DNA from: a virus
Lineage: Duplodnaviria > Heunggongvirae > Uroviricota > Caudoviricetes
Virus record (IMG/VR): IMGVR_UViG_2711768076_000016
Length of the DNA: 29,766 nt
Reading direction: 5' to 3' (one strand)
Position numbers and translations under genes: made by a program. The notes below the pieces were generated by a model that was given only the letters and a program-made list of their open reading frames with translations, did not search any database and had not been told where the DNA came from. Of the stretch, positions 11,261-29,766 are shown piece by piece; within the stretch, counting starts at the first letter, position 1, and every line of letters begins with the position of its first letter.

Positions 11261-11278
11261 GGGCGCGGTTCCGCGCCC
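11261..11278 (+). terminator. GC-rich hairpin after the capsid gene (attenuator or partial terminator)
   Basis: Stem GGGCGCGG / CCGCGCCC with loop TT, 9 bp after the capsid stop; followed by CTGTTCTG, a weak U-tract. Confidence 0.35.
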
Positions 11279-11301
11279 CCTGTTCTGAAGGGTGAAGAAT
11301 C

Positions 11302-12715: not shown

Positions 12716-13272
12716 AACTGACGCCTGTTATTGCTGCACTGCGTGCCCGCTGTCCGTATTTTGAAAACCGGGTTGCAGGTGCGGCCCAGTTCAAAAATCT
12801 GCCGGAGGTCGGAAAGCTGAAACTCCCGGCGGCATATGTTGTACCGGGTGATGATTCTCCGGGAGAAAACAAAAGCCAGACCGACTACTGGCAGGCGCTG
12901 AAAGAGGGTTTCTCCGTGATTGTCATACTGAGTAACGGGCGTGATGAGCGCGGTCAGTTTGCCTCGTATGATGTGGTGGACGATGTCCGGCAGATGCTCT
13001 TTAAGGCTCTGCTGGGCTGGAACCCGGAGGCGTGCGGTAACCCGATTACCTATGACGGCGGCACGCTGCTGGATCTGAATCGTCATGAGCTGATTTATCA
13101 GTTCGATTTTTCGGTCATCAGCGAGCTGACTGAAGACGATACCCGCCAGCAGGATGATCTGAACAGTCTGGATGAACTGCAAACGCTGGCGATTGATGTT
13201 GATTATCTCGATCCCGGTAACGGGCCTGACGGCGATATCGAACATCACACAGAAATAACCATTCCTTCCTGA
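12712..13272 (+). CDS. Tail completion / terminator-like protein
   Basis: 186-aa ORF, ATGA-coupled to the upstream gene, immediately before the sheath region. Confidence 0.4.
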   Translation: MKLTPVIAALRARCPYFENRVAGAAQFKNLPEVGKLKLPAAYVVPGDDSPGENKSQTDYWQALKEGFSVIVILSNGRDERGQFASYDVVDDVRQMLFKALLGWNPEACGNPITYDGGTLLDLNRHELIYQFDFSVISELTEDDTRQQDDLNSLDELQTLAIDVDYLDPGNGPDGDIEHHTEITIPS

Positions 13273-13280
13273 GGATCCTC

Positions 13281-13451
13281 ATGTTTGTGAAACCTGTTAA
13301 AGGGCGGTCAGTGCCTGACCCTGCCCGCAGCGACCTTTTGCCCGCCGAAGGGCGAAATGTTGACGAGAACAACTACTGGCTGCGCCGTGAAGCAGCTGGT
13401 GATATCCGGCGCGTGAATAAAAAGGTGAACACCGATGACGATAAGCTTTAA
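13281..13451 (+). CDS. Small protein (56 aa) preceding the tail sheath gene, DUF2635-like position
   Basis: ATG 13281 to TAA 13449-13451, translated by hand (MFVKPVKGRSVPDPARSD...); below the ORF-track length cutoff; overlaps the sheath start. Confidence 0.4.
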   Translation: MFVKPVKGRSVPDPARSDLLPAEGRNVDENNYWLRREAAGDIRRVNKKVNTDDDKL

Positions 13452-14931
13452 CACCATTCCGTCGAATACGCTGGTTCCGCTGTTTTATGCGGAAATGGAT
13501 AACCAGGCGGCGAATACTGCACAGGACAGCGGAGCATCGCTGCTGATTGGTCATGCCAGTAACGGTGCAGAGATTGTTGCCAACAGTCTGGTGCTGATGC
13601 CGTCGGCAGACTATGCACGCCAGATTTGTGGTGCGGGAAGTCAGCTGGCGCGTATGGTCGAGGCTTATCGCCAGACCGACCCGTTTGGTGAGCTGTATGT
13701 GATTGCCGTTCCGGAAGCCACAGGCGCGGCGGCAACGGTTACGCTGACGGTGACCGGGGAAGCAACCGAAAGCGGCACGGTGAATGTCTATGTGGGACGT
13801 ACCCGCGTGCAGGCTCCGGTGACCAACGGCGATAACGTCACGACGATTGCCAGCAGTATCAAAGATGCCATCAATGCCGTTCCGGCCCTGCCGTTTACGG
13901 CTTCATCTTCGGCAGGTGTGGTCACACTGACCGCGCGTCATAAGGGGCTTTGCGGGAATGAAATTCCTGTCAGCCTCAATTACTACGGCTTTGGTGGGGG
14001 CGAAGTGCTGCCAGCGGGCGTACAGATTGCCGTGGCGACGGGTACCGCCGGAACGGGTGCTCCGGTTCTCACCGGCGCGGTGGCTGCAATGGCGGATGAG
14101 CCGTTTGATTATATCGGCCTGCCGTTCAACGACACGGCCTCCGTTAACACGCTGGTGACCGAGATGAACGATACCAGCGGTCGCTGGAGCTATGCGCGTC
14201 AGCTGTATGGTCATGTGTATACGGCAAAGATCGGCACGCTGTCAGAACTGGTGACCGCAGGTGACCAGTTTAACCAGCAGCACATTACCCTGGCGGGGTA
14301 CGAAAAAGAGACCCAGACGCCTGCCGACGAACTGGCGGCAAGCCGTACCGCCCGCGCAGCGGTGTTTATTCGCAACGATCCGGCACGTCCCACGCAGACC
14401 GGTGAGCTGGTGGGTATGCTGCCTGCGCCGAAGGGGAAACGGTTCACGATGACCGAACAACAGACCCTGCTGTCTCATGGCGTGGCAACGGCGTATGTCG
14501 AAAGCGGGGTACTGCGCATTCAGCGTGATGTCACCACGTACAGGAAAAACGCTTACGGGGTTGCGGATAACAGCTACCTCGACAGTGAGACACTGCATAC
14601 CAGCGCGTATGTACTGCGCAAACTGAAATCCGTCATTACCAGTAAGTACGGGCGTCACAAGCTTGCCAGTGACGGTACCCGCTTTGGTCCCGGTCAGGCG
14701 ATTGTCACCCCGGCGGTGATCAAAGGGGAACTGCTGGCAACCTACCGTCAGCTTGAGCGTGCGGGGATCGTGGAAAACTACGAACTGTTTAAGCAGTACC
14801 TGGTTGTGGAGCGTGATGCCAGCGATCCGAACCGCCTGAACACGCTGTTCCCGCCTGACTATGTTAACCAGTTGCGTGTCTTTGCCGTGGTTAACCAGTT
14901 CCGTCTTCAGTATTCAGAGGAGTCTGCATAA
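13435..14931 (+). CDS. Contractile tail sheath protein (Mu gpL-like)
   Basis: 498-aa ORF followed by tube, chaperone and tape-measure genes in Mu-like order. Confidence 0.7.
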   Translation: MTISFNTIPSNTLVPLFYAEMDNQAANTAQDSGASLLIGHASNGAEIVANSLVLMPSADYARQICGAGSQLARMVEAYRQTDPFGELYVIAVPEATGAAATVTLTVTGEATESGTVNVYVGRTRVQAPVTNGDNVTTIASSIKDAINAVPALPFTASSSAGVVTLTARHKGLCGNEIPVSLNYYGFGGGEVLPAGVQIAVATGTAGTGAPVLTGAVAAMADEPFDYIGLPFNDTASVNTLVTEMNDTSGRWSYARQLYGHVYTAKIGTLSELVTAGDQFNQQHITLAGYEKETQTPADELAASRTARAAVFIRNDPARPTQTGELVGMLPAPKGKRFTMTEQQTLLSHGVATAYVESGVLRIQRDVTTYRKNAYGVADNSYLDSETLHTSAYVLRKLKSVITSKYGRHKLASDGTRFGPGQAIVTPAVIKGELLATYRQLERAGIVENYELFKQYLVVERDASDPNRLNTLFPPDYVNQLRVFAVVNQFRLQYSEESA

Positions 14932-15287
14932 TGGCCCGTATCGGGGGAACCTGTTATTTCAAAATTGACGGTCAGCAGCTATCGCTGACCGGCGGCATTG
15001 AGGTGCCCATGAACAGGACGGTCAATGATGACATCATCGGCCTGGACGGTTCAGTGGACCGCAAGGAAACTCACCGTGCGCCCTATGTCAAAGGGACCTT
15101 CAAGGTGCCGAAGAATTTTCCGGTGAGCAAAATCACCTCGTCTGATGAGATGACCATCACTGCCGAGCTGGCGAACGGTCAGGTCTATGTACTGTCGTCT
15201 GCCTGGCTGCACGGCGAAGCGAACCATAATGCCGAAGAAGGCACGGTTGATCTTGAGTTCCACGGTGAAGAAGGGGATTACCAGTAA
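14931..15287 (+). CDS. Tail tube protein (Mu gpM-like)
   Basis: 118-aa ORF immediately after the sheath gene. Confidence 0.6.
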   Translation: MARIGGTCYFKIDGQQLSLTGGIEVPMNRTVNDDIIGLDGSVDRKETHRAPYVKGTFKVPKNFPVSKITSSDEMTITAELANGQVYVLSSAWLHGEANHNAEEGTVDLEFHGEEGDYQ

Positions 15288-15705
15288 TGAAAGAGCTTGA
15301 GTTAAAGAAACCGATTACTGCTCATGGCGAGACACTCTCCGTACTTGAGTTTGATGAGCCCACCGGGAAAGATGTCCGCGAGCTGGGGTATCCCTACCAG
15401 ATGAATCAGGATGAGTCAGTCAGACTTCTGGCGCATGTGGTATCGAAATACATTGTGCGGCTGGCGAAAGTGCCGCAAAACTCTGTCGACCAGATGTCTC
15501 CGGCAGACCTGAATGCAGCGGCGTGGCTTGTGGCCGGTTTTTTCCTCCAGGCCTGACGGCTGAATACCTCACTGATCGCTTCTTTGACTGCGCCAGTTAC
15601 TGGCGCATTAATCCTTTCGAATTGCTGAATATGCCGATCAGTGAAATTCCCTTGCTGGTCAGTCAGGCAAACAGGATAGAGCAGGAGAAACGCACACATG
15701 GCTGA
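15287..15705 (+). CDS. Tail assembly chaperone with a putative programmed -1 frameshift extension
   Basis: Zero-frame ORF 15287..15556 (89 aa). Slippery heptamer T_TTT_TTC at 15538-15544 leads into the -1 frame ORF that ends at 15705, just overlapping the tape-measure start. Confidence 0.5.
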
Positions 15706-17530
15706 ATTTGAGCTTAAGGCGTTGATCACCGGTGTCGACAGACTTTCTCCCGCGCTGTCGAAAATGCAAAAGAAAATCCGGGGATTTAAACGCCAGGCGG
15801 AAGAAGCATCACAGGGTGGGCTGGCGCTTGGTGGCGGACTGGCAGCGGGTCTGACGCTTTCCCTGAAATCTTATGCCGATCAGGAAAACGCCGCCACCGG
15901 GCTGAAAGTCGCCATGATGGATGCGAACGGCGAGGTCGGAAAGAGCTTTCAGGACATCAATAAACTGGCTATTGGCCTGGGTAACCAGCTACCCGGTACA
16001 ACGGCTGATTTCCAGAACATGATGCAGATGCTGGTGCGTCAGGGGATCCCGGCAGAAAATATTCTTGGCGGTGTGGGTAAAGCGACAGCTTATCTTGCGG
16101 TACAACTGAAAAAAACACCGGAAGCGGCTGCTGAGTTTGCTGCAAAGATGCAGGATGCTACCGGAACGGCGTCAGAAGACATGATGGGGCTGTTCGACAC
16201 TATCCAGAAGGCGTTTTATCTGGGCGTTGACGATACCAACATGTTGTCCTTCTTCACTAAAACCAGTTCTGTTCTGAAGATGGTGAACAAGGACGGTCTT
16301 CAGGCTGCACAGAGCCTTGCCCCCATCAGCGTCATGATGGATCAGATGGGGATGAACGGGGAGTCGGCAGGTAATGCCCTGCGAAAAGTTATCCAGTCCG
16401 GATTAAGCGTTAAGAAAATCAGGGACGTTAATAAAGTTATGGCCCGCCAGAAACTCGGGGTACAGCTCGATTTTACTGACGGCAAAGGGAGTTTTGGCGG
16501 TCTTGATAACATGTTCAGGCAACTGGCAAAGCTGCGAAAACTGACCGACGTTAAGCGAACCGGTGTACTTAAGGCAATATTTGGTGATGATGCCGAAACC
16601 CTTCAGGTGGTCAATGCTCTGATCGATAAAGGAAAGGATGGTTACGATCAGATCCAGCAGAAGATGAATAAACAGGCCAGCCTGAATAAACGTGTTCAGG
16701 CCCAGCTTGGTACGCTGTCCAACCTGTGGGAGGCAATGACGGGGACCGCAACTAACGGCCTTGCGGCTATTGGCGGCGCATTTTCTGGTGACGTCAAAAA
16801 TATCACGCAATGGCTGGGGGAGTTAGGGGAAAAATTCACGAAGTTTGCGGATGAAAATCCCCGGGTTATTCGCGGCGTCGTCGGGCTTGCTGCCGGTCTT
16901 GCGATTCTGAAACTGGGATTGATGGGCGTGGGCAGTGCCATCAGTATCGTCAGCAGGATCATGTCGATGACGCCGATTGGCATGATTGCGACGGCGATAG
17001 CCCTGGCTGCGGGATTAATTATCACTAACTGGGATGTTGTCGGACCTTATTTTAAGAAGCTCTGGGAAACCATTAGTCCTTATTTTGAGGCTGGCTGGGA
17101 ACTTCTGAAGAAGGTTTTTGCCTGGTCGCCGCTGGGGATGGTGATCAATAACTGGGGACCGGTTGTTAAGTGGTTTCAGGATATGTGGGATAAGCTGAAG
17201 CCGATTATTGAATGGTTTACCGACAGTTCCGGTGACACGGTCGATGCCATTAACTCGGCGCAGTGGGGCGCGGGTGCTTATGATGCTTATGGGACGGGAA
17301 TACCGCCACGGGGATACACTCCTTATCCGGAGGTGGATCCGGCTCAGGCAAACAACGCCTCCGGTGCCACAGGTCCGAATCCCTTCATGATTAATAAAGC
17401 TACCGCGCCAAAAGTTGATGGTGAGATCAAGGTATCATTTATAAATATGCCACCAGGTATGCGGGTTACGGAAACACGCTCCAGTGGCATTGATATAAAT
17501 CACGATGTTGGCTATACCCGATTTTGGTAG
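15698..17530 (+). CDS. Tail tape measure protein
   Basis: 610-aa ORF, Ala/Gly/Leu-rich with hydrophobic stretches; position after the chaperone. Confidence 0.8.
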   Translation: MAEFELKALITGVDRLSPALSKMQKKIRGFKRQAEEASQGGLALGGGLAAGLTLSLKSYADQENAATGLKVAMMDANGEVGKSFQDINKLAIGLGNQLPGTTADFQNMMQMLVRQGIPAENILGGVGKATAYLAVQLKKTPEAAAEFAAKMQDATGTASEDMMGLFDTIQKAFYLGVDDTNMLSFFTKTSSVLKMVNKDGLQAAQSLAPISVMMDQMGMNGESAGNALRKVIQSGLSVKKIRDVNKVMARQKLGVQLDFTDGKGSFGGLDNMFRQLAKLRKLTDVKRTGVLKAIFGDDAETLQVVNALIDKGKDGYDQIQQKMNKQASLNKRVQAQLGTLSNLWEAMTGTATNGLAAIGGAFSGDVKNITQWLGELGEKFTKFADENPRVIRGVVGLAAGLAILKLGLMGVGSAISIVSRIMSMTPIGMIATAIALAAGLIITNWDVVGPYFKKLWETISPYFEAGWELLKKVFAWSPLGMVINNWGPVVKWFQDMWDKLKPIIEWFTDSSGDTVDAINSAQWGAGAYDAYGTGIPPRGYTPYPEVDPAQANNASGATGPNPFMINKATAPKVDGEIKVSFINMPPGMRVTETRSSGIDINHDVGYTRFW

Positions 17531-17558
17531 CCAGGATTCCCCTCACAGGTATTGCTGG

Positions 17559-17586
17559 TTGTAAGTCATAAATAGAGTGATAGAAT
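17559..17586 (+). promoter_or_regulatory. Candidate sigma70 promoter for the tail-module moron (-35 TTGTAA, 16-bp spacer, -10 TAGAAT)
   Basis: Hexamers read directly, about 36 bp upstream of ATG 17622. Confidence 0.35.
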
Positions 17587-17621
17587 TAATGCACATTTAG
17601 AAAAATGTTAATAGGCGAAAA

Positions 17622-18152
17622 ATGAAAGGCTATATCACAGCAAGTGTAATTCTTGGAGCAGCGGCTATTTTTTCATCTCTCATAATCTCTGGCAACATCT
17701 CCTTTAAAGATGAACATATTATTCAGTTATCTGGAGGAGCCATAAAACTTGGTGATGTTTATAAAGAAAATAAATTGATAAGTGCAAAGATTATTTTTCC
17801 AGATAATCAGGGTGAACAGATTCTTGTTGTCGACGGCAATCCTGAAAACTTTAAGGAGGATTTTCAGGAGAAATTAAATAAAGTAATAAAAACTTTAAAT
17901 GCGTCAAAGAAAAAAGATGAAGAGAAAGTTAGCCTGGATAATTTAAGTGTTATTGAAGAGTCTAAACTAGAGCTCGTTTCTGCGGTGCGTTACTCTGCTC
18001 AGTATGTTCCTATGTTTACTCTGACGCTGGACAAAAAAGAAATTACCATGCCTAAAAATACGGTAATATTTCCATTTGCCAGCGATGAAACAGCTAAGTA
18101 TTTAAATGAACAACAGCAAAAGTATAAAGATTCGTTGTTTCTGACTCGCTAA
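17622..18152 (+). CDS. Hypothetical protein with N-terminal signal/anchor (176 aa); moron inside the tail module
   Basis: Strongly AT-rich ORF inserted between the tape-measure and DNA-circularization genes; N-terminal hydrophobic segment (ASVILGAAAIFSSLIISG) then a Lys/Glu-rich soluble domain; has its own terminator. Confidence 0.5.
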   Translation: MKGYITASVILGAAAIFSSLIISGNISFKDEHIIQLSGGAIKLGDVYKENKLISAKIIFPDNQGEQILVVDGNPENFKEDFQEKLNKVIKTLNASKKKDEEKVSLDNLSVIEESKLELVSAVRYSAQYVPMFTLTLDKKEITMPKNTVIFPFASDETAKYLNEQQQKYKDSLFLTR

Positions 18153-18170
18153 TTAATAAAATTCATTACA

Positions 18171-18197
18171 AGGCCACCTTCTAATAGGTGGCTTTTT
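18171..18197 (+). terminator. Rho-independent terminator after the moron
   Basis: Stem AGGCCACCT / AGGTGGCTT with loop TCTAAT followed by a T-tract. Confidence 0.55.
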
Positions 18198-18213
18198 AAT
18201 TTTCGGAGTATAT

Positions 18214-19542
18214 ATGACGTGGAAAGACAGGCTTCAGGACGCGTCATTTCGCGGCGTGCCGTTTAAGGTTGAAGAAGAAAGTGCGGGAACCGGTCGCCGT
18301 GTGGAAACACATGAATACCCGAACCGCGACAAACCCTATACCGAAGACCTGGGGAAAATCACTTTTCGCCCGTCCATCACGGCTTATGTGGTGGGAGATG
18401 ACTGCTTTGACCAGCGCGATCGCCTGATTGAAGCGCTGAATAAACCAGGTCCCGGCACGCTTGTCCACCCGACATATGGTGAGCTGAAAGTCTGTGTTGA
18501 CGGGGAAGTTCGGGTCAGCACATCGAAAAGTGAAGGGCGTATTGTCCGCTTTGACCTGAAGTTTGTCGAAGCAGGAGAACTCTCTTACCCCACATCAGGT
18601 GCGGCGACGGCGCAGACGCTGATGTCATCCTGTTCTGCACTGGATGACTGCATCAGTGACAGCTTCAGCGGTTTCAGTATCGATGGTGTGGCGGATTTCG
18701 TGCAGAACGACGTTATCGGTAATGCCAGCATAATGCTGGGGTATGTTTCTGATGCGATGAAAGTGGTGGATTCTGCCGTATCGGATGCCGCCAGGCTGTT
18801 GCAGGGGGATATCTCGGTACTTCTGCCGCCGCCATCGTCAGGCAAAAATTTCGTTGAACAGGTGCAGAAAATGTGGCGTACCGGGAAACGCCTTTATGGT
18901 AACGCCAGCGACCTGGTCACCATGATCAAAACGCTTTCTGGTGTCAGCCTCGGCAGCGATTTGCAACCGCGCGGCGTCTGGAAAACGGACAGTAAAACCA
19001 CCGCCACAGCGACGCAGCAGCGTAACATGGTTGCCAGCACCCTTCGTACGACTGCAATCAGCGAAGCGGCGTATGCCGTTACCCGATTGCCTGCGCCAAC
19101 AACTTCTGCGGTGATGCAGAATGCCGCAGTGGGGCAGTCAACAACACCCGCGCAGAGCTCCGGCTGGCCTGCCGTCACGCATCCGGTGCTGAACAATGCA
19201 CCGGCGGTAAAAAACACGGTTGACCTGCCAACGTGGGAAGAACTGACCGACATTCGCGACACACTGAATACGGCAACTGATAAGGAGTTGTCCCGTACAA
19301 CCAGTGATGCGCTGTTTCTGGCGCTGCGCCGGGTGAAAGCAGATCTGAATGCGGATATCAACACGCGCCTTGAACAGTCTGCACGGATCATTCAGCGCAC
19401 GCCGGATGAGGTTTTACCCGCGCTGGTGCTGGCGGCGACCTGGTTTGATAACGCGGCGCGTGACGCGGACATTATCCGGCGTAATGCCATTACGCATCCC
19501 GGCTTTGTGCCGGTGATCCCTCTGAAGGTGCCAGTGCAATGA
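18214..19542 (+). CDS. DNA circularization protein (Mu gpN-like)
   Basis: 442-aa ORF directly after the tape-measure region, as in Mu-like tails. Confidence 0.55.
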   Translation: MTWKDRLQDASFRGVPFKVEEESAGTGRRVETHEYPNRDKPYTEDLGKITFRPSITAYVVGDDCFDQRDRLIEALNKPGPGTLVHPTYGELKVCVDGEVRVSTSKSEGRIVRFDLKFVEAGELSYPTSGAATAQTLMSSCSALDDCISDSFSGFSIDGVADFVQNDVIGNASIMLGYVSDAMKVVDSAVSDAARLLQGDISVLLPPPSSGKNFVEQVQKMWRTGKRLYGNASDLVTMIKTLSGVSLGSDLQPRGVWKTDSKTTATATQQRNMVASTLRTTAISEAAYAVTRLPAPTTSAVMQNAAVGQSTTPAQSSGWPAVTHPVLNNAPAVKNTVDLPTWEELTDIRDTLNTATDKELSRTTSDALFLALRRVKADLNADINTRLEQSARIIQRTPDEVLPALVLAATWFDNAARDADIIRRNAITHPGFVPVIPLKVPVQ

Positions 19543-20659
19543 ACGATAACGTCACGCTACGGGTAAATGGCCGAGAGTGGAATGGCTGGACATCGGTGCG
19601 CATCGGTGCCGGTATTGAACGGCTGGGGGGGGGGNNNNNNNNNNNNNNNNNNNNNNNNNNNNNNNNNNNNNNNNNNNNNNNNNNNNNNNNNCCCGCCAGT
19701 GGCCGGGAGATGAGGGTATCACCACGCTTCAGCCGCGCATTAAAAATGGTTCAAAAGTGGAAGTGCTGATTGGTGATGAGCTGGTGATCACCGGCTGGGT
19801 GGAGGCGACCCCCGTTCGTTACGATGCCCGTTCGGTCAGCACCGGTATTGCCGGACGTAGTCTGACTGCTGACCTGATTGACTGTGCAGCCGAACCGACA
19901 CAGTTTAACGGACGATCGCTGGTACAGATTGCGCAGGCGCTTGCTGCGCCTTTCGGCATTGAGGTGGTGAACAGCGATGCGCCGTCGGGTGTTATTCCGG
20001 ATGTCCAGCCTGATCACGGTGAAACGGTGATCGAGGTGATCAACAAAATACTCGGTCAGCAGCAGGCGCTGGCTTATGACGACCCGCACGGCAGGCTGGT
20101 GATTGGTGGTATTGGCTCAACGCGGGCACATACCGCGCTGGTACTTGGGGAAAACATCCTTTCCTGTGATACGGAGAAGAGTATCCGGGAGCGGTTTTCA
20201 GTTTACCAGGTGGCGGGGCAGCGTGCCGGAAACGACGATGATTTCGGTGAGGCCACCACCACCGCGCTGCGGGCCCGCACAGAGGATGCATTTATTGCCC
20301 GTTACCGTCCGATGTATATCAGGCAGACAGGGCAGGCTACGGGGGCAGGCTGTATTGCGCGTGCTGACTTTGAAGCCCGACAACGGGCGGCGCGGACGGA
20401 TGAAACCACCTATGTGGTGCAGGGCTGGCGACAGGGTAACGGTACGCTGTGGCAGCCCAACCAGCGGGTGATTGTCTTCGATCCGGTCTGTGGTTTCGAC
20501 AATACCGAACTGCTTGTCTCGGAAGTCACGTTTACTCAGGACCAGAATGGCACCCTGACGGAAATCCGTGTCGGCCCACCTGATGCTTATCTGCCTGAAC
20601 CCGAAGCCCCCGGCGCGCGGAAAAAGAAAAAAGCCAGAGTACAGGAGGACCCGTTCTGA
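19539..20659 (+). CDS. Baseplate hub protein (Mu gpP-like), interrupted by an assembly gap
   Basis: ORFs 19539..19769 and 19757..20659 are a single gene split by the N run; combined length of about 373 codons fits. Confidence 0.5.
19635..19691. other. Assembly gap (57 N) preceded by a 10-nt poly-G tract
   Basis: Read directly from the sequence. Confidence 0.95.
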
Positions 20660-21207
20660 TGAGGACGATTGAAGCCATGCAGCGACAACTTCTCGGCCTG
20701 ATTGGGCGGGCAGTGGTGAAAAGCATCAGTGCCGCCACGAAATGTCAGACCGTGGATGTGTCCCTGATTGCCGGTGAACCCAAAGCCGGGGTTGAACATC
20801 TTGAACCCTACGGTTTTACCGCAAGGGCAAACAGCGGTGCGGAAGCGGTGGTGTTGTTTCCGGATGGCGACCGTTCTCATGCGGTGGTTGTTACGGTGTC
20901 GGACCGGCGCTACCGCCTGAAAGGGCTGCAGACGGGTGAGGTGGCTGTCTATGACGATCAGGGGCAGTCCGTGACGCTGACCCGGGAGGGGATCGTGGTG
21001 GACGGTGCAGGTAAAACGATCACGTTTCGCAATTCACCTAAAGCACGTTTTGAAATGGACCTGGAAGTGACAGGACAGGTGAAAGACCTGTGCGACTCCA
21101 GCGGCACCACCATGTCAGCGATGCGGCTTGCCTATAACGGGCATCGTCACAGAGAGAACGGTCAGGGCAGTAACACCGACAAACCTGATAAAGCGATGGA
21201 GGCATGA
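20659..21207 (+). CDS. Baseplate spike / assembly protein (gpV- or Mu gp45-like)
   Basis: 182-aa ORF, ATGA-coupled, in the baseplate block. Confidence 0.55.
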   Translation: MRTIEAMQRQLLGLIGRAVVKSISAATKCQTVDVSLIAGEPKAGVEHLEPYGFTARANSGAEAVVLFPDGDRSHAVVVTVSDRRYRLKGLQTGEVAVYDDQGQSVTLTREGIVVDGAGKTITFRNSPKARFEMDLEVTGQVKDLCDSSGTTMSAMRLAYNGHRHRENGQGSNTDKPDKAMEA

Positions 21208-21632
21208 TGGAACTGTGGCTGACGGTGAACGGTAAACGCACCTGCGCCAGCGCACCGCTGGATCCGCTGACCCGCGCCGTGGTGATTTCCCTGTTTACCT
21301 GGCGGCGGGCGGAGCCTGATGACAACGCCGACGTCCCGATGGGATGGTGGGGGGATACCTGGCCTGCGGTACAGAATGACCGTTACGGCTCCCGACTGTG
21401 GCTGCTTCAGCGCAGCAAACTGACCAATCAGCTGGTGCTGACGGTAAGGGGGTATATCCGCGAATGCCTGCAATGGATGATTGATGACGGCGTGGTGTCC
21501 CGTATTGATCTGGATATCCGCCGCACCGGGATTAATGAACTGGGTAACAGTATCACTCTCTGGCGTCGTGACGGACCGGTAATGATTTCTTTTGATGATC
21601 TGTGGAGTGCGATAACGCATGGCGGACAGTGA
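21204..21632 (+). CDS. Baseplate protein (Mu gp46-like)
   Basis: 142-aa ORF in the baseplate block. Confidence 0.5.
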   Translation: MMELWLTVNGKRTCASAPLDPLTRAVVISLFTWRRAEPDDNADVPMGWWGDTWPAVQNDRYGSRLWLLQRSKLTNQLVLTVRGYIRECLQWMIDDGVVSRIDLDIRRTGINELGNSITLWRRDGPVMISFDDLWSAITHGGQ

Positions 21633-22677
21633 ATTTCAGCGCCCGACGCTGGCTGAAAATATCAGTATGCTCCGTAACGATTTATTCGCCAGGCTGGACG
21701 TCAGCGACACGCTCCGGCGCATGGATGAAGACGTGCGGGCAAAGGTGTATGCGGCGGCGCTGCATACGGTTTACGGGTACATCGATTATCTGGCAATGAA
21801 CATGCTGCCTGACCTGTGCGATGAGTCCTGGCTGGCGCGACATGCTGCGATGAAACGGTGTCCGCGCAAGGGGGCCACGGCTGCCAGCGGGTATATGCGC
21901 TGGGAAGGTGTCAGCGATGGCCTGAAGGTGACCGCCGGGAGTGTTATTCAGCGCGATGACCTGGTTCAGTATACTGCAACTGCCGATGCAACCAGCTCCG
22001 GTGGTGTCCTGCGCGTGCCGATCGCCTGCTCAAATGCAGGCGCGGTCGGTAACGCTGACGACGGTACGGCATTAATCCTGGTCACGCCGGTGAATGGTCT
22101 GCCGTCTTCCGGTGTGGCTGACACCCTGACAGGCGGATTTGATACTGAAGAGCTGGAAACGTGGCGCGCCCGCGTCATTGAGCGGTATTACTGGACGCCG
22201 CAGGGCGGGGCTGACGGGGACTATGTCGTATGGGCTAAAGAAGTGCCCGGCATTACCCGCGCATGGACATACCGTCACTGGATGGGAACGGGAACTGTCG
22301 GTGTGATGATTGCCAGCAGTGACCTGATTAATCCCATTCCGGAAGAATCAACGGAAACGGCGGCAAGACAACATATCGGGCCACTGGCCCCGGTGGCAGG
22401 CTCTGATTTGTATGTGTTCAGGCCGGTGGCACATACGGTGGATTTTCATATCCGCGTGACGCCGGACACACCGGAAATACGGGCTGCCATCACCGCGGAG
22501 TTGCGTTCGTTCCTGCTGCGTGATGGTTATCCGCAGGGAGAACTGAAGGTATCGCGTATCAGTGAGGCGATTTCCGGTGCGAACGGGGAATACAGCCATC
22601 AGTTGCTTGCACCGGCAGACAATATCTCCATTGCAAAAAATGAACTGGCGGTACTGGGGACGATTTCATGGACGTGA
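21619..22677 (+). CDS. Baseplate J-like protein (Mu gp47-like)
   Basis: 352-aa ORF; size and position upstream of the tail-fibre genes. Confidence 0.65.
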
Positions 22678-23252
22678 CAAACGATGATTACATCCGTCTG
22701 TTGTCGGCACTGTTGCCCCCCGGTCCGGCGTGGTCAGCCAGCGATCCGGCGATTGCCGGTGCGGCACCGTCATTAACCCGCGTTCATCAGCGTGCGGATG
22801 CCCTGATGCGGGAGCTGGATCCGCGCACCACCACTGAACTGATAAACCGCTGGGAGCGTCTGTGCGGTCTGCCGGATGAATGTATTCCCGCAGGGACACA
22901 GACCCTTCGCCAGCGTCAGCAACGGCTGGATGCGAAGGTTAACCTGGCGGGTGGCATCAACGAGGATTTTTATCTTGCACAGCTTGCTGCCCTGGGCAGA
23001 CCAGATGCCGCCATCACGCGATACGACAAAAGCACGTTCACCTGCTCATCGGCCTGTACTGACGCTGTGAACGCGCCTGAATGGCGGTATTACTGGCAGG
23101 TCAACATGCCAGCCGCCACCAACACCACCTGGATGACATGTGGCGATCCCTGTGATTCCGCACTGCGTATCTGGGGCGACACAGTTGTCGAATGTGTGCT
23201 TAACAAACTCTGCCCGTCGCATACCTACGTAATTTTTAAATATCCGGAGTAA
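22668..23252 (+). CDS. Tail protein (Mu gp48-like, YmfQ-like)
   Basis: 194-aa ORF immediately upstream of the tail fibre; same size and position as e14 YmfQ (recalled, not searched). Confidence 0.55.
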
Positions 23253-23255
23253 TCC

Positions 23256-23894
23256 ATGCATCGTATAGACACGAAAACCGCGCAGAAGGATAAGTTCGGC
23301 GCGGGTAAGAACGGTTTTACCCGTGGTAACCCCCAGACCGGCACGCCTGCCACCGATCTGGATGATGACTACTTTGACATGTTGCAGGAAGAGCTCTGCA
23401 GCGTGGTGGAGGCATCCGGTGCCAGCCTGGAGAAGGGGCGGCATGACCAGCTGCTTACCGCGCTTCGTGCGCTGCTGTTAAGTCGCAAAAATCCGTTTGG
23501 CGATATCAAATCGGACGGCACGGTGAAAACGGCTCTTCAAAACCTTGGTTTGGGAGAAGCGGCAAAACGGAATGTAGGTAACGGGCAAAATGGTCTGAAT
23601 GGGTATGTAACGATTCCGTTAATTATTTCAGGTTCCCGGAGAACACTGATTATTCAGTGGGGGCAGGCGAGATTTGGTGGGTCTGGTGGTGAAGATGCCG
23701 GATATCTTAATGATTTTCCTTTTGCCTTTCCGTCAGCATGTTATGGAATGATAGTTAGTCATGTGGGGCATACACCTTCAGGCGCAGGAATCCTGTCGGC
23801 TTCTGCAATTACATCAAATCAGTTCCGCGGTTTTTCAAGCATAGCGACTGCTGCAAATGCTGTATTAGGTCGTTATATCGCTATAGGGGGTTAA
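23256..23894 (+). CDS. Tail fibre protein: constant N-terminal part plus the currently expressed variable C-terminal part
   Basis: 212-aa ORF; the inverted repeat and crossover site lie inside it (23533-23590); the C-terminal third is AT-rich. Confidence 0.7.
23533..23558 (-). repeat. Left crossover site of the invertible segment (Pin/Gin/Hin-type 26-bp site)
   Basis: Read on the minus strand: TTCTCCCAAACC-AA-GGTTTTGAAGAG. Lies within a 46-bp inverted repeat (23545-23590) that matches 25031-25076 exactly. Confidence 0.65.
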
Positions 23895-23895
23895 T

Positions 23896-24333
23896 ATGTT
23901 TTATAGTCCATCATTAAACATTTTTGTGAATCCTGCGCTTAAGGATGATTACATTAATGCAAATTCATGGCCAGATGATGCTCTGGCTGTCAGTGATGAT
24001 GTTTATAATGAATTTGCAATCAATACGCCCCCATATGACAAAATTCGTGTTGCAGGAAAAAATGGATTACCCACATGGGCACTAATACCTCCACCATCGC
24101 ATGAAGAACTTATTCAACAGGCAGAATCAGAAAGGCAATTATTGCTTAATCAGGCCAACGAATACATGAACAGTAAACAATGGCCCGGTAAAGCCGCTAT
24201 TGGTCGTCTGAAAGACGAGGAACTGGCACTATATAATTTGTGGCTGGATTACCTGGACGCACTGGAACTGGTGGATACCTCCAGTGCTCCAGATATTGAA
24301 TGGCCTACACCTCCGGTAACTCAGGCCAGCTAA
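23896..24333 (+). CDS. Tail fibre assembly protein (Tfa), expressed orientation
   Basis: 145-aa ORF directly after the fibre gene; conserved Tfa C-terminus (VDTSSAPDIEWP). Confidence 0.65.
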   Translation: MFYSPSLNIFVNPALKDDYINANSWPDDALAVSDDVYNEFAINTPPYDKIRVAGKNGLPTWALIPPPSHEELIQQAESERQLLLNQANEYMNSKQWPGKAAIGRLKDEELALYNLWLDYLDALELVDTSSAPDIEWPTPPVTQAS

Positions 24334-24700
24334 TCTCAGGAGCCGTCGAAGTGTCGACGGCTTTTACTTCTTTTTTGTAGTCCATCCAGGCGGATAGTTT
24401 TTCTTTATCTGTACTGCTGATATCACCAAGCATTAATTCCACTCGCCAGTCAGCTGTGACATTATCGGCATGAGCAAGTAACTGCATTCGCTGATTTTCA
24501 GCACGTGCGACATAATCAATCGCCGGAGATTTCAGTACCGGTAAACCATTTTCATCTGACGTGATTAATTTACCCCCTTCCTGCTGTCCGGCAATTAATT
24601 CATTGTATAAGTCTGTACTTATCTCAACAATGTCAGCAGGCATGTCGCTGTTTATACCATCAAAGAAAAAACCATTAGTCGATTTTGAGAAATAAATCAT
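24305..24700 (-). CDS. Alternative tail fibre assembly protein (Tfa'), silent orientation
   Basis: Minus-strand ORF 24305..24730, likely start at the Met at 24700; C-terminus VDTSTAPEISWP parallels the + strand Tfa; converges tail-to-tail with it. Confidence 0.65.
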   Translation of the reverse strand: MIYFSKSTNGFFFDGINSDMPADIVEISTDLYNELIAGQQEGGKLITSDENGLPVLKSPAIDYVARAENQRMQLLAHADNVTADWRVELMLGDISSTDKEKLSAWMDYKKEVKAVDTSTAPEISWPELPEV

Positions 24701-24708
24701 AGATATAC

Positions 24709-25076
24709 CTATACACCGATTGCTACCCAAAAACAGGACCTTTCATATTTGACAATTTCTCCCTGAGATATACCGCCAACAATTATATAGAACTGTGATT
24801 TGGTGATATCAGAACAGTTCGCAATGCCCATTGCAGATATACCAGCCAACGACGTTGTATGTGGCACAGCCAACAGCGCAAGTGAACGATTTGGGAATGT
24901 TACCGGGTAAGTCACCGTATAGTTTGATGCTCCACTGACAATACCCCACTGAATAATCAGACCTGAAGGGAGTTTTTGAAAACCCGTTGATGAAAGTGAA
25001 CTGGCAAACGCCGCCATATCCGGAATTTGGTTTTGCCCGTTACCTACATTCCGTTTTGCCGCTTCTCCCAAACCAA
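24709..25076 (-). CDS. Alternative variable tail-fibre C-terminal segment, promoterless until inversion
   Basis: Minus-strand frame begins with the same residues encoded by the inverted repeat ([14 protein letters not shown]) as the + strand fibre, then diverges. Confidence 0.6.
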
Positions 25077-25088
25077 CGTTTATGAAAA
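25063..25088 (+). repeat. Right crossover site of the invertible segment
   Basis: TTCTCCCAAACC-AA-CGTTTATGAAAA; resembles the hix/gix-type site layout (12 + 2 + 12). Confidence 0.65.
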
Positions 25089-25142
25089 TGCAGAAATAAC
25101 GAGAAAATGGCATCATTCCTGCTTTTGTCAGAGGGAGCTACC

Positions 25143-25334
25143 ATGCTTATTGGCTATGTTTGCGTATCAACAAATGACCAGAAAATCGATCTACAACGTA
25201 ATGCGTTGAACTGTGCAGGATGCGAGCTGATTTTTGAAGACAAGATAAGCGGTACAAAGTCCGAGAGCCTAGGGCTGACAGTGCTGTTCTTGATGCAAAT
25301 TAAAGGATTTAATAGTGAGTTGCGGCCTTACTAA
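25143..25334 (+). pseudogene. pin: Truncated serine DNA invertase (Pin/Gin/Hin family), N-terminal about 45 residues only
   Basis: MLIGYVCVSTNDQKIDLQRNALNCAGCELIFEDKISGTK matches the invertase catalytic N-terminus including the active-site Ser. Similarity ends near 25278 and the frame stops after 18 unrelated codons. GAGGGA Shine-Dalgarno at 25131-25136. Confidence 0.7.
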
Positions 25335-25345
25335 TGTAAGGCCGC
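25322..25345. terminator. Hairpin between the truncated invertase and the convergent restriction-like gene
   Basis: Stem GCGGCCTTA / TAAGGCCGC with loop CTAATG; 22 bp from the stop of the minus-strand gene. Confidence 0.4.
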
Positions 25346-25367
25346 TATAATCATTTTATTAATTGCA

Positions 25368-27257
25368 TTAATCGTATTTTGGCCATACTTTCAATGCAAT
25401 TTCCCCCAACTTTTTACCTCGCTCCTGTATTTCACTCTCATCCCATTTATCCTTAAGTATAAGTGGTATGTTCAGTCGTAGATTGGTGTGGACGATGAGA
25501 GCATCACGTTTTTTCAGAAATACAGCATTCTGAACGGAACGGTTTACGCTAAGGTTAAGCAAAGTTAGATTTCCCAACGTAGCTATCGCTTGTTGCCGTT
25601 TCCTTACCAGTAGCTGTTCAGGGGTAAGATCGGTTCCAGACAGAACAATTTGGTTCATTACCGTAGCATCTGAATTTGTCACCATATGACCATTTTCGAG
25701 AGGCCAACAGGAATACCAACTTTGAGGCATAAGATGATCGATATCGAGATTAGAAAGATTTGGAACATCAGGCTTTTCTGTCTTCACTTGGCGACAAAGT
25801 TCTCTTTCAAGTTCCGTTAACATTGAGCGCATTTTCGGTGCGTCGAGCCTGCCAGGATAAAGTGGAGCATTGATGCAAGCGTTGAGAAATTCTGAGTCCC
25901 CAGGCCAACGTGAGGCTTCGCCATTTAAGCTATTGAGGATATTACGTAACTCAACACTGGAAATTTCCGTTTTAGACAAGTGTCGCAATACATTCATAAA
26001 TACATTGTTGTAATTCTTTGGCGTCAGGCCACATACGGATCTTCGTACTACGTAGGAGACAAGATCATTATACATGGCTGCTTTCTCATCATCGGCGATG
26101 TTAGCTATCGAAATGAACAAAGCAAGCGGATAGAGTGTCGTCACATCATAGGCTGCGATGCGATGTCCAAAGTGTGAGATGGGGGTTGTGCCAAAACCAC
26201 CAACCAATTCTTTATATTGTGATGCATATTGTTTGAGGCGCTTTACTTGCAGATCTGCTCGTTGTGAAGGCAAGTCCTTACTTACATAATCACGATACTC
26301 ATTGTAAAGGCGAGACAGATCAATTTCACGCTGCCTTTCTGATTGCAATGTCGCATGTACAAGCCACTCCATGCGTGGTTTATTAATACGTCCACGGCGT
26401 TGCTTTTCCGACCAGTATTTATCTTCAAAGATCTTCCACTCATTTTCATATAATTCAATAGCATTAATATTTTCATGCTCAGCGCACATAAAGATATAGT
26501 TGCGAATAAGATCCGTTGCATGAAGTTCCGCTCCTCGCCCATTTAATGTTTCAAAAATTATTTGGGCATCATCTTCAGCTTCGAGAAATATGCTTACCAG
26601 TTTCAGATCCGTCAAGACAGCCTCAATTAGTGCTACAGCATTTTCTTGTGGTGAGTGGTTTTCTATTTTAATCCATTTTATAAAGGCTTCAGTAAAAAAC
26701 CATAATGCCTCTAGTGACGGCGGGTGGTTGAAATGTTTACGTAACGTACCATGTTGCGTGAAGCTATCAGAAAATACATTACGGAGATCGTCAATATTAT
26801 CAACATTAAGACTTTGAATAAAATGAGTTTGATCTCGAAAAGTTGGCCACAGTTTGAAGCATTCTACCTTTTTATTTCTCATCGTTGCTTCGTTTGTATT
26901 TTTCAAGCAAGTCAATACTAACCCTTCCAGTTCAGAAAGGCCTGTAGCACGCAATGATAATCGAATGGATGCCAGAATATATTGAAGAGTGGTTAAACGT
27001 TGCTGGCCGTCAATAATATGTATGGTATCTACACCTAACAAGCTGTTTTTGAGTTGAGGTTCCAGCACCACCGCGCCGAGGAAATGAGGGGTTGGTTTTG
27101 TTCCCGAAAGTCGGCTCTGTGCTTTTTCGAAGATATCCTCCAACAAAGCTGACCATTGGTTTCGTTGCGTCCATACGTAGGCACGTTGATAGAATGGAAC
27201 ACGATATTGTCGTTGATTTTGGAAAATTTGCTGGATGGTTAGCGTTTCGGATTTCAT
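25368..27257 (-). CDS. DUF262/DUF1524 fusion protein; putative GmrSD-family type IV (modification-dependent) restriction endonuclease
   Basis: 629-aa minus-strand ORF. N-terminal DUF262/ParB-like motifs (FYQRAYVW, IIDGQQRLTT, FETLNGRGAELHATDLIRN). C-terminal DUF1524/His-Me-finger motifs (DIDHLMPQS, GNLTLLNLSVNRSVQN). AT-rich, convergent with the phage late operon. Confidence 0.7.
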   Translation of the reverse strand: MKSETLTIQQIFQNQRQYRVPFYQRAYVWTQRNQWSALLEDIFEKAQSRLSGTKPTPHFLGAVVLEPQLKNSLLGVDTIHIIDGQQRLTTLQYILASIRLSLRATGLSELEGLVLTCLKNTNEATMRNKKVECFKLWPTFRDQTHFIQSLNVDNIDDLRNVFSDSFTQHGTLRKHFNHPPSLEALWFFTEAFIKWIKIENHSPQENAVALIEAVLTDLKLVSIFLEAEDDAQIIFETLNGRGAELHATDLIRNYIFMCAEHENINAIELYENEWKIFEDKYWSEKQRRGRINKPRMEWLVHATLQSERQREIDLSRLYNEYRDYVSKDLPSQRADLQVKRLKQYASQYKELVGGFGTTPISHFGHRIAAYDVTTLYPLALFISIANIADDEKAAMYNDLVSYVVRRSVCGLTPKNYNNVFMNVLRHLSKTEISSVELRNILNSLNGEASRWPGDSEFLNACINAPLYPGRLDAPKMRSMLTELERELCRQVKTEKPDVPNLSNLDIDHLMPQSWYSCWPLENGHMVTNSDATVMNQIVLSGTDLTPEQLLVRKRQQAIATLGNLTLLNLSVNRSVQNAVFLKKRDALIVHTNLRLNIPLILKDKWDESEIQERGKKLGEIALKVWPKYD

Positions 27258-27519
27258 TGTTTACCTATAAATAACATTAAGTGACATTCCACAAGAGTAA
27301 GAAATTCATCTGAGTCAGAACAATCATTTTTATGTAGTTATGATACAGTGTATTTGTTACTGGTGAAGTAAAAATAAGAAACCCCGCTTTTGAATGCTGA
27401 CGCGCTACGGTTTCATTGGATATTTTTTGTCTCTCCTCCATCCCGTTGGTGTTCTGTTTAGACTGATAACTTGCTGTTTTAATTGATATTAGTTTCTTGC
27501 GCCGCCCAATCATGGTTGG

Positions 27520-27539
27520 TGGGTTGGTGGGTGGGTGGG
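27520..27539 (+). repeat. G-quadruplex-type motif (GGG TTGGT GGG T GGG T GGG) within short GGTKGGT repeats
   Basis: Read directly; lies about 265 bp upstream of the start of the minus-strand restriction-like gene. Confidence 0.5.
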
Positions 27540-27604
27540 AGTTAAATCCACATTGGTATGAAGAACATAGAATATGAATTAGTGTTTCAGAATTGCTTCA
27601 GCCA

Positions 27605-27934
27605 TCACTTTTTAATACGTTCAATTTGAATGTTTATTTCCGAAACAATTTTTTCAGGTTTCAGTCCCTCGTTAGATTGCACAAAATCTCTAATTTGCAT
27701 CATTCGATGTGCACAAATTTGTAATTCGCTATAAACACTTAGCTCGTCAGATTCATTTTGAGATTGTTCACCTGTTTAAAATTCTACATAAGTATGTGGC
27801 GGATTGTGATAAACACGAGAAATCGGGGTTGGCCACCATTCCTCACCGGTCACTACGTCCGCATCGAATAGTACAGTTTTGTCAATTTCCATTAATTTCT
27901 GGATAAGAACAGAAGTTTTCAAGCGAACCTCCAT
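27605..27934 (-). pseudogene. Small minus-strand reading frame (about 109 codons) interrupted by one in-frame TAA
   Basis: Hand translation on the minus strand: MEVRLKTSVLIQKLMEIDKTV...HTYVEF, stop at 27776-27778, then TGEQSQNESDELSVYSELQICAHRMMQIRDF...IERIKK. No clear Shine-Dalgarno. Confidence 0.25.
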
Positions 27935-28075
27935 TTTGCCATAAAGTGGTTATCAAAACGCTACGTAAACTATACAAAATCAGCGAGTTATGGTGAAGGT
28001 AAAAAAACAAGTTTAGATGTTCGTTAAGTATAAAATTGTTTTAATTCAATTGGATATAATAATTTTCTAAATCTA

Positions 28076-28240
28076 ATGTTACGCCATATGGGCTGGACTG
28101 AAGCCGCAGACCTGATTGTTAAAGGTATGGAAGGCGCAATCAACGCCAAGACTGTAACCTATGACTTCGAACGTCTGATGGAAGGCGCTAAACTGCTGAA
28201 ATGTTCAGAATTTGGTGATGCGATCATCAAGAACATGTAA
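28076..28240 (+). pseudogene. icd: 3'-terminal fragment of isocitrate dehydrogenase gene (displaced icd end, icdC-like) marking the attR region
   Basis: Encodes [54 protein letters not shown] followed by a stop, which matches the C-terminus of E. coli Icd as I recall it. No upstream icd sequence precedes it; e14-type phages integrate within the icd 3' end. Confidence 0.8.
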
Positions 28241-28263
28241 TCACTACATGTGTTTAATATTGC

Positions 28264-28295
28264 AACGGGCGTATAACACGCCCGTTGTTTTATTT
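28264..28295 (+). terminator. Rho-independent terminator downstream of the icd fragment
   Basis: Stem AACGGGCG / CGCCCGTT with loop TATAACA followed by GTTTTATTT. Confidence 0.6.
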
Positions 28296-28342
28296 ATGTA
28301 GGTATTATTAATAGCATATCGAGCATATTTATATAAAACCCT

Positions 28343-28666
28343 TTACTTGAGCCCATATGGGCATATTTTTATAATGCAACTATTATGCAAACATTTATTT
28401 GTTATTTTGCTTTCTCCTGGAGGACACTCTTGACTGCTTTTGAGTAGACTCCATAAATCCTTGTTGAATGGTGCGATGTTATAAATAGTAATAGGATATT
28501 CTTTATCTTTAAGGATAATTCCAGATTTAACCGGTGTAAATATACTGCCAGGAGGGAGAAATATAGTAGATTGATACCAGATGATCATTTTCATATTACC
28601 CCATATGGCTGAAAAAGATATGCCGCATGAAGGTTGAATTATCGTGTCAATTACTATCCACTTCAT
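28343..28666 (-). CDS. iraM: Anti-adaptor protein IraM-like (107 aa)
   Basis: 107-aa minus-strand ORF ([17 protein letters not shown]...) matching recalled IraM length and sequence character; synteny icd-fragment / iraM / ycgX as in E. coli K-12 downstream of e14. Confidence 0.55.
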
Positions 28667-29123
28667 TTGTTATGTCTTATCCCACGGTATTTAATATAGT
28701 TCATTTGGATGTTCATTTCTTTATTTTGCATATGAGTATATTACCCCTTCAAAAAATAAATTAATTAAAACGATTGCTTATATAAAACAAAATTTAAAGC
28801 AAGGAATCTCAATGGATGTTAAACAAAATGAGATTTAGTGAAAACAATAAATTATTCACTTCGTTTTAGATTTGTTTAGCTATAATGTTATACATTCAAA
28901 TGACTGAACATCCTGTAATTAAAACATAGCCTTTATGCTACTTTGTGCCAATTTGCTAAACATTATGGTTGCCTTTTTATATAACGATAATAATGAATAT
29001 AAGCATGACATGAGAATAAGGTTTCAATTTTTGAGTTATATAGGAAAGGTTTAACCTGTTCCTGGCTAAAATACATATAACTGGATGATGACTAAACCAA
29101 AACACATGTGCGTTAAGTATTGA

Positions 29124-29152
29124 AACGGGCGTATGGCACACCCGTTGTTTTT
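29124..29152 (+). repeat. Second, diverged copy of the icd-terminator-like element
   Basis: ACATGTGCGTTAAGTATTGAAACGGGCGTATGGCACACCCGTTGTTTTT is about 80% identical to 28246-28292 (ACATGTGTTTAATATTGCAACGGGCGTATAACACGCCCGTTGTTTTA). Confidence 0.45.
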
Positions 29153-29361
29153 ATAAATATATTAACCGTTATAAAATAACGTATAGAAAGTCAAGTGATC
29201 ACATTTCAAATATCAATTTGATAGTATTGGCATGGTGATTATTTATGGGTAGCAATAAAAGGACAGTATTTATCATCCATAGGGATAGTCTCTGTACTTT
29301 TATTCCCATTATGCTAATGCCTTACTGAATTATGAAGCATTTCTTAAGCATCCAACTTTAG

Positions 29362-29766
29362 CTAGATTAATGGTTTATTATTTTCTACATCTTCAATATA
29401 TAAAAGCGTATTATCAATGGCGTAGTAACTGCGTTTGTTATGATTAACATCAGTAACCCACCGGAAAACGCCCGCGCCTGCTAGTGTTGAACAGTATTCC
29501 CGAAATGTAGATTTTCCGCAAATATGAAGCAATGCGGCCTCTTTTATTTTAGCAGGGTTCTTGGTCGTACTAACTTTTAACAGGTTCCTGGTTCCTCTTA
29601 ATAACAAAACCGTGTCATCGTGAGTAATAATTCTGATGTTATCCGTAGCCAGATAATAAATGTAATGTGCAATACGGTGATGTTTTAATTCTGAATAAAA
29701 CCAGGAGAAGTTTTGCTCTTTTCTCACTTGCTCAAACATCTTTTGAAAAACAACGACCTGATCCAT
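29362..29766 (-). CDS. ycgX: YcgX-like protein (134 aa); start codon at the window edge
   Basis: 134-aa minus-strand ORF; length and position downstream of iraM match E. coli ycgX (recalled). AT-rich. Confidence 0.5.
   Translation of the reverse strand: MDQVVVFQKMFEQVRKEQNFSWFYSELKHHRIAHYIYYLATDNIRIITHDDTVLLLRGTRNLLKVSTTKNPAKIKEAALLHICGKSTFREYCSTLAGAGVFRWVTDVNHNKRSYYAIDNTLLYIEDVENNKPLI

Follow-up and report, generated by a model that had tools for sequence, protein, structure and literature searches.

The canonical gmrSD restriction gene of Escherichia coli as predicted cargo of an e14/SfII-like prophage at icd

The virus record IMGVR_UViG_2711768076_000016 of IMG/VR (Caudoviricetes; 29,766 nucleotides, the whole stretch being referred to below as the window) contains an open reading frame (ORF) on the minus strand at 25368–27257 that starts with ATG and encodes 629 amino acids (aa). 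As judged from the sequence, it is almost certain that this ORF is the canonical gmrSD gene of E. coli, which encodes a type IV endonuclease dependent on glucosylated 5-hydroxymethylcytosine (glc-5hmC) or 5-hydroxymethylcytosine (5hmC), and that it is the cargo of an e14/SfII-like prophage in icd. The predicted protein is identical to the resequenced GmrSD of E. coli CT596 in 629/629 residues; the window encodes the prototype of the GmrSD family itself and not a relative, the CT596 enzyme being the founding member. A first-pass annotation, made from the sequence without database searches, called the protein GmrSD-like. The GmrSD architecture was borne out, but “like” is too weak a word for a protein 100% identical to the prototype. 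The same annotation stated that the target could not be read from the sequence, a view now superseded by the experiments that established glc-5hmC/5hmC DNA of T-even phages as the target of the identical protein (PMC4437046). Since the identity extends over the entire length, the target is therefore taken as known. The gene, its function and its prophage context were read correctly, but they were already known: publications cover the enzyme with its substrate, catalytic residues and phage-encoded inhibitor, as well as its prophage location by tail-fibre and invertase genes.

The present analysis addresses the architecture of the protein, its catalytic residues, its identity to characterised enzymes, its prophage position and the variability of the slot that it occupies; the substrate, the cofactor need and the inhibition are transferred from experiments on identical or near-identical proteins. 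All motifs quoted for the minus-strand protein were located in the translation: FYQRAYVW (aa 22–29), IIDGQQRLTT (aa 81–90), FETLNGRGAELHATDLIRN (aa 235–253), DIDHLMPQS (aa 505–513) and GNLTLLNLSVNRSVQN (aa 562–577). In the profile search, Pfam GmrSD_N (PF03235) matched aa 8–256 over profile positions 1–199 of 199 (E = 1.7e-33; 116.8 bits against a cutoff of 33.2), and GmrSD_C (PF07510) matched aa 451–619 over positions 1–137 of 138 (E = 4.9e-20; 72.3 bits against a cutoff of 23). The PADLOC model PDLC03655 “mREase_IV” (type IV methyl-directed restriction enzyme) spanned residues 1–629 of 629 with 1523.7 bits. These scores rule out a chance ORF at 25368–27257 and agree with the earlier reading of a fusion of DUF262 and DUF1524 as the GmrSD architecture. 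The GmrS (DUF262) domain, a ParB/Srx-like nucleoside triphosphate (NTP)-binding module, occupies 26490–27236 on the minus strand, with the codons of DGQQR at 26997–27011; the GmrD (DUF1524) domain, a His-Me finger (HNH) nuclease, occupies 25401–25907 on the same strand, with D507-H508 at 25734–25739 and N522 at 25692–25694. Both domains, the N-terminal one with DGQQR and the C-terminal one with DH...N as is characteristic of the family, lie in a single uninterrupted ORF. The linker between residues 256 and 451 is about 195 aa long, in line with the figure of about 200–400 aa for the family. The described motifs (I/L/V)(E/D)H(I/L/V)xPQ and L(G/A)NLxLLxxxN (PMC4619093) are represented by IDHLMPQ and LGNLTLLNLSVN. 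The functional residues DGQQR 83–87, E271, E273, E278, K280, D507, H508 and N522 are all present.

The CT596 enzyme was reportedly described at first, by Bair and Black in 2007, as GmrS plus GmrD. It was then resequenced as one gene (He et al. 2015, PMC4437046), and in supplementary Figure S1 of that publication the single-chain CT596 GmrSD, as resequenced, is shown alongside the sequences of Eco94GmrSD and UTI89 GmrSD. The CT596 sequence was assembled from this figure and then compared with the window ORF. Besides the complete identity with CT596 GmrSD, the window protein showed 627/629 identical residues with Eco94GmrSD, the differences being R316H and Q611L, and 93% identity with UTI89_C2960, with no gaps. 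An exact-sequence look-up found the window protein on at least 1000 contigs, and its old UniProt representative is Q8KTH0. In RefSeq it is WP_001526918.1, named “DUF262 domain-containing protein”.

Published experiments describe what such a protein does. Eco94GmrSD is 629 aa long, is 93% identical to UTI89_C2960 and is encoded in an SfII-like prophage, with the tail-fibre genes immediately upstream (PMC4437046). It cuts T4 (glc-5hmC) and T4gt (5hmC) DNA in a buffer with Mg2+ or Mn2+ and spares unmodified DNA, and cleavage is strongly stimulated by ATP and by other NTPs or the corresponding deoxynucleotides (dNTPs) (PMC4437046). Cloned cut sites fit two 5hmC residues on opposite strands, 17–23 bp apart, with the cut near the middle, and each of the substitutions D507A, H508A and N522A abolishes cleavage (PMC4437046). 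At low copy, CT596 GmrSD blocks T2 and ip1-minus T4, and the block is relieved by co-expressed IPI*; the CT596 prophage has been described as curable (PMC4437046). The N-terminal domain was assigned to the fold of ParB/Srx, and the C-terminal one to the His-Me finger/HNH superfamily (Machnicka et al., PMC4619093).

It is very likely that the window protein works in the same way. The ParB/Srx-like DUF262 domain would bind or hydrolyse NTP, and the DUF1524 His-Me finger with D507-H508...N522 would cut DNA. The target would be incoming DNA of T-even phages with 5-hydroxymethylated, glucosylated cytosines, cut as reported between two modified cytosines on opposite strands 17–23 bp apart, and the lysogen would thereby be protected. 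T4 evades the enzyme by co-injecting the inhibitor protein IPI*. The window copy is presumably expressed from a conserved leader of about 220 bp.

Several points weigh against this picture. The expression and activity of the window copy in its strain are assumed, and a promoter/terminator scan of 25000–28300 gave no more sites than shuffled sequence. The UTI89 allele, at 93% identity, is inactive in vitro and has another phage range in vivo (PMC4437046 supplement), so small sequence changes matter in the GmrSD family, a caveat that is not applicable to an identical sequence. The specificities described in vitro also differ: the two-chain CT596 reconstitution preferred glc-5hmC, and 5hmC is cut by Eco94GmrSD as well. 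How exactly GmrSD recognises its sites is still loosely defined.

A rival reading is a paralogue of the GmrSD family with another modification specificity, such as 5-methylcytosine (5mC), phosphorothioate or deazaguanine. Specificity does vary within the family: 5mC DNA is among the substrates of BrxU, UTI89_C2960 spares T4 and T4 ip1-minus and restricts other T-even phages, and the window protein gave weaker PADLOC matches to the Orf5, HEC-06 and SspE models. These matches, however, reached 54–259 bits against 1523.7 bits for mREase_IV, and the window protein matches the CT596 enzyme in every residue and Eco94GmrSD in all but two, both of which have a demonstrated preference for glc-5hmC/5hmC. 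With glc-5hmC/5hmC-dependent restriction by the identical protein already published in cleavage and plaque assays, another specificity is extremely improbable. It is also very improbable that gmrSD serves mainly as a toxic or addictive module for prophage stabilisation or abortive infection and not as a classical host restriction enzyme. In RecA-deficient E. coli, both CT596 GmrSD and Eco94GmrSD are toxic when over-expressed, the toxicity is relieved by IPI*, and an unknown prophage function that tempers it in the native strain was the subject of speculation by the authors (PMC4437046). Nevertheless, the toxicity was ascribed to star activity at high expression, and single-copy expression restricts phages without harm to growth (PMC4437046). 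The purified enzyme cuts modified DNA directly, and gmrSD is adjoined by no conserved antitoxin-like partner, the 78-aa ORF upstream being unconserved in UTI89 and without a family match.

The prophage setting was analysed by a megablast comparison with 5426 complete E. coli genomes. The segment 24700–28400 was 100% identical to strain 442/2 and others. In the RefSeq annotation of 442/2, the baseplate genes are followed by ymfQ, tail-fibre and assembly genes in both orientations, a recombinase pseudogene, the DUF262 protein, a fragment of isocitrate dehydrogenase, iraM, ymgK, ymgL, ycgX and bluR; further left, this prophage contains intE/xisE, regulators, Q, lysis genes, terminase, portal, capsid, sheath, tube and tape measure genes. 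The window is the right two-thirds of an apparently complete e14/SfII-like myovirus prophage in icd, plus host DNA. Integration in icd is indicated by a 3′ fragment of icd at attR adjoining iraM and by intE/xisE at the opposite end in 442/2. The fragment, icdC, is the 3′ end of the host gene icd, displaced to 28076–28240 on the plus strand; it matches Pfam Iso_dh positions 301–348 of 348 and its K-12 counterpart, and 28076–28291 additionally aligns with the 3′ end of icd at 83.8% identity. Host DNA beyond icdC starts with iraM (28343–28666, minus strand). The neighbourhood of gmrSD matches that published for CT596, where genes for tail-fibre assembly and invertase flank gmrS/gmrD (PMC4619093).

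Alignment with the K-12 locus places gmrSD exactly where e14 carries mcrA, between the remnant of the Pin invertase gene and icdC, as the first-pass annotation had proposed. The order in MG1655 is stfE, pinE, mcrA, the end of e14, icdC and iraM; K-12 carries intact pinE and mcrA at this position and not gmrSD. The backbone common to the window and e14 includes 6833–8570 and 21890–23577 (97% identical) and 25062–25278 (90% identical to pinE and the sequence upstream). After 25278, blastn of the window against the K-12 locus gave no similarity until 28066, which lies 8 nt before icdC, and from there 28066–29766 is 95.6% identical to K-12, through ycgX. The swapped segment, a cargo slot between the invertase and attR, is therefore 25279–28065, where 2787 bp replace 1584 bp of K-12 e14, that is, the 3′ three-quarters of pinE plus mcrA. 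The window prophage retains a full set of head, tail and lysis genes, unlike the 15-kb e14 remnant of K-12. The described contrast between an AT-rich cassette and GC-rich structural genes was reproduced, with a GC content of 0.413 in gmrSD and 0.394 in the replaced segment against 0.544 in the structural genes (6000–23500); AT-richness is shared by the neighbouring invertible tail-fibre segment, at 0.433, and by the host flank, at 0.336.

Homologs of gmrSD were found in 304/5426 complete E. coli genomes, and about 5.6% of these genomes thus carry the prototype GmrSD clade; the identity was at least 99% in 56 genomes, 95–99% in 29 and 90–95% in 218, the last group including UTI89. By blastn against three loci, a conserved module made up of the Pin stub, the gmrSD gene and an upstream leader of about 220 bp extends over 25062–27470. 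It aligned without rearrangement with UTI89 (25015–27478, 91%, prophage at ssrA), 14EC001 (25062–27468, 96%, prophage adjoining paoD) and APEC O2-211 (25062–28299, 98%, prophage at icd). The stub, gmrSD and the leader behave as one module that travels among prophages at icd, ssrA and the pao-adjacent site. No copy of gmrSD was found in 50,697 deposited phage genomes, where only the first 265–279 nt or so of the query, i.e., the 5′ end of the invertase gene and the sequence just upstream, gave matches. Plasmid relatives were at most 75–87% identical, save one near-identical record of 1.3 Mb that looks chromosomal; a true plasmid relative, from Leclercia, is 75% identical.

The content of the slot was compared in sampled sister prophages. 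At icd, K-12 has mcrA with intact pinE, and the window and APEC O2-211 have gmrSD with the Pin stub. A lambdoid prophage at icd in EC190486 (region 2653000–2659100 of NZ_CP143092.1) carries a cytosine methyltransferase gene, a type II restriction endonuclease gene and a gene for a LEM-3-like GIY-YIG protein, with an inserted IS3. LZYWN_4, at ssrA, has three hypothetical genes and intact pinE, and in CFS3292, next to pphA, no annotated gene lies between intact pinE and the host pphA. Full-length pinE plus mcrA occur in 329 genomes, many of which are laboratory derivatives of K-12. The proposed defence-gene swap at a variable prophage slot is supported by this range of mcrA, a type II restriction-modification system, hypothetical genes or nothing. 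A LEM-3-like GIY-YIG gene is also located downstream of gmrSD in UTI89.

The invertase gene left of gmrSD is a Pin/Gin/Hin-type serine invertase pseudogene at 25143–25286 on the plus strand, in which about 45 codons are homologous to pinE as far as 25278 and the following sequence is unrelated. The frame from the pin ATG, 25143–25334, encodes 63 aa; the listed ORF begins upstream at 25107 and encodes 75 aa. The position of about 25278 given earlier for the end of similarity is exact to the nucleotide in two comparisons: window 25062–25278 corresponds to 14605–14821 of the K-12 locus with 90.3% identity (blastn), covering the upstream region and the first 136 nt of pinE, and the match with the invertase of phage Cartapus in the phage collection ends at query position 279, which is window 25278. 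The stub covers only positions 2–54 of 145 of Pfam Resolvase, and RefSeq calls it a pseudogene missing its C-terminus (“recombinase family protein”). It reads MLIGYVCVSTNDQKIDLQRNALNCAGCELIFEDKISGTKSE and then diverges, and the conserved Arg preceding the catalytic Ser of the invertase in K-12 PinE is Cys in the stub (GYVRVST to GYVCVST). It falls short of a complete Din-type invertase, in which a resolvase domain and a C-terminal helix-turn-helix make up about 184 aa, and, on these sequence features, is read as a dead gene remnant with no functional invertase. Directly to its left lies the invertible tail-fibre segment (23540–25081), which has intact 51-nt inverted repeats (23540–23590 and 25031–25081; 98% complementary) with opposed tail-fibre and assembly genes between them. 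Unless another invertase of the Din family in the cell acts in trans, the orientation that this segment now has is probably fixed.

That the acquisition of the cassette removed most of the invertase gene, as was suggested earlier, holds with respect to the loss, as about 45 codons remain; the causal role of the acquisition is a matter of interpretation, the junction being old and shared. Only the end state is visible, and the invertase gene might have been truncated by a deletion independent of the acquisition of gmrSD, the cassette itself not having removed pin. Decay of pin is common: in other E. coli prophages, recombinase matches break off at other points, at pinE nt 290, 345, 384, 412 and 431, and the stub has also gained the substitution of the conserved Arg. 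On the other hand, the identical junction between stub and gmrSD was found in 4/4 gmrSD loci examined, at 91–98% DNA identity and three att sites, and homology to every invertase ends at 25278, just 90 bp away from the stop codon of gmrSD. A junction common to alleles 91–98% identical at three sites indicates that the truncation is old, shared and not specific to the window; together with the common end point at 25278, it is explained most simply by one illegitimate recombination event, and an independent deletion is unlikely. The most economical reading is that the insertion itself would have caused the deletion of pin. One ancient insertion/deletion may have produced the junction between the Pin stub and gmrSD, which may since have moved among related prophages via homologous recombination in flanking phage DNA.

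A broader proposal is tentative, and we consider it somewhat less probable than its opposite: in e14/SfII-like prophages with a Mu-like tail, the slot may be a true, uncatalogued defence hotspot like those of P2/P4, the module hopping between att sites and disabling tail-fibre inversion upon arrival. Hopping might proceed by recombination in the conserved region of the invertase and inverted repeats. If this were true, the arrival of the module would trade the switching of phage host range for the protection of the lysogen.

The UTI89 and 14EC001 alleles have conserved counterparts of the region upstream of gmrSD, 27258–27478 on the minus strand, but indels interrupt the conservation; this region is presumed to be the promoter region, a role that we infer. 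An ORF of 78 aa at 27277–27513 was considered as a regulator or antitoxin and rejected: it had no Pfam or PADLOC match and its frame is broken by indels in UTI89. The region is therefore treated as a putative non-coding leader. It is followed by the AT-rich attR-proximal arm (27479–28065), which, by genome counts, is specific to icd-integrating prophages. The arm was found in 59/5426 genomes, always in one copy, and adjoins different cargo in EC190486, whose attR arm is the same as that of the window from 27578 onwards. It contains a (GGTTGGTG)n tandem repeat of 3.2 copies at 27514–27539; the copy number differs between the window and APEC O2-211, and several genomes vary slightly in length there. 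The Rfam search of 24900–29766 gave nothing at the gathering score; below it, tpke11 matched once, at the icdC terminator.

Some other genes of the window are also of note. Two AT-rich genes (GC 0.33–0.37) at 1671–1940 and 2138–2944, both on the plus strand, lie where morons are classically found, between the antiterminator Q and holin genes. Of their products, that of 89 aa has only a sub-threshold match to DUF2513, and that of 268 aa matched nothing in Pfam or PADLOC. An AT-rich ORF of 176 aa at 17622–18152 (plus strand, GC about 0.35), located between the tape-measure and DNA circularization genes amid tail genes of 52–59% GC, has no Pfam or PADLOC match; it is a further possible moron. The terminase small-subunit gene is closely preceded by a DUF6173 gene on the opposite strand (4780–5196) and a gene for a small HNH endonuclease of the usual terminase-associated type (5268–5618, plus strand).

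The practical interest of these data lies partly in annotation. The scan with NCBIfam (release 20) found no model matching the nuclease or the invertase stub, and the RefSeq/PGAP name together with the lack of an NCBIfam model hides the prototype GmrSD from automated annotation. The annotation of GmrSD bears on predicting whether therapeutic T-even phages will plate on a strain. In addition, the exchange of type IV enzymes in one prophage slot, McrA (5mC) versus GmrSD (glc-5hmC), is resolved to the nucleotide, and a third strain fills the same slot with a type II restriction-modification system.

Among the known systems, CT596 GmrSD is the closest. It shares all 629 residues with the window protein, is prophage-borne and has tail-fibre assembly and invertase genes as neighbours; there is no difference at the protein level, and the identity is established for the protein, not for the whole locus. 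Eco94GmrSD (ECSTEC94C_1402, WP_000834395; E. coli STEC_94C) has the same length and the same D507/H508/N522 numbering, and its gene lies directly downstream of tail-fibre genes in an SfII-like prophage. It differs in R316H and Q611L and, unlike the window copy, which is known from sequence, has been purified and characterised in vitro. UTI89_C2960 (EcoUTI89 GmrSD), also of 629 aa, belongs to the same module of Pin stub and gmrSD in a related prophage with a Mu-like tail, but that prophage is integrated at ssrA and not at icd, and the protein has 44 substitutions. Reportedly, IPI* does not affect it, it lacks activity in vitro and its phage range is different (PMC4437046).

More distant systems share parts of this design. 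The phmmer search of the PDB to E = 10 found no close solved structure for the gmrSD product; the sole relative was the DUF262 protein 9JFL, a distant one that aligns over aa 2–261 (E = 2.6e-7), in the N-terminal domain only. BrxU, from a BREX island of E. fergusonii and also from ECOR21, combines DUF262 and DUF1524, cuts modified-cytosine DNA with stimulation by NTPs and has a DH...N active site. Its sequence is nevertheless very distant, being undetected by the same search even at E = 10, its substrates are broader (5mC), it is located in BREX and not in a prophage, and its inhibitor is Ip2, not Ip1. EcoKMcrA of K-12 e14 occupies the same slot, after pin and before icdC, in a related icd-integrated prophage, and is likewise a modification-dependent nuclease of type IV that has an HNH-type domain. 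Its sequence and N-terminal reader domain are unrelated to those of GmrSD, it targets 5mC (C5mCGG) DNA, its gene is transcribed in the direction of pin, and the K-12 pinE next to it is intact.

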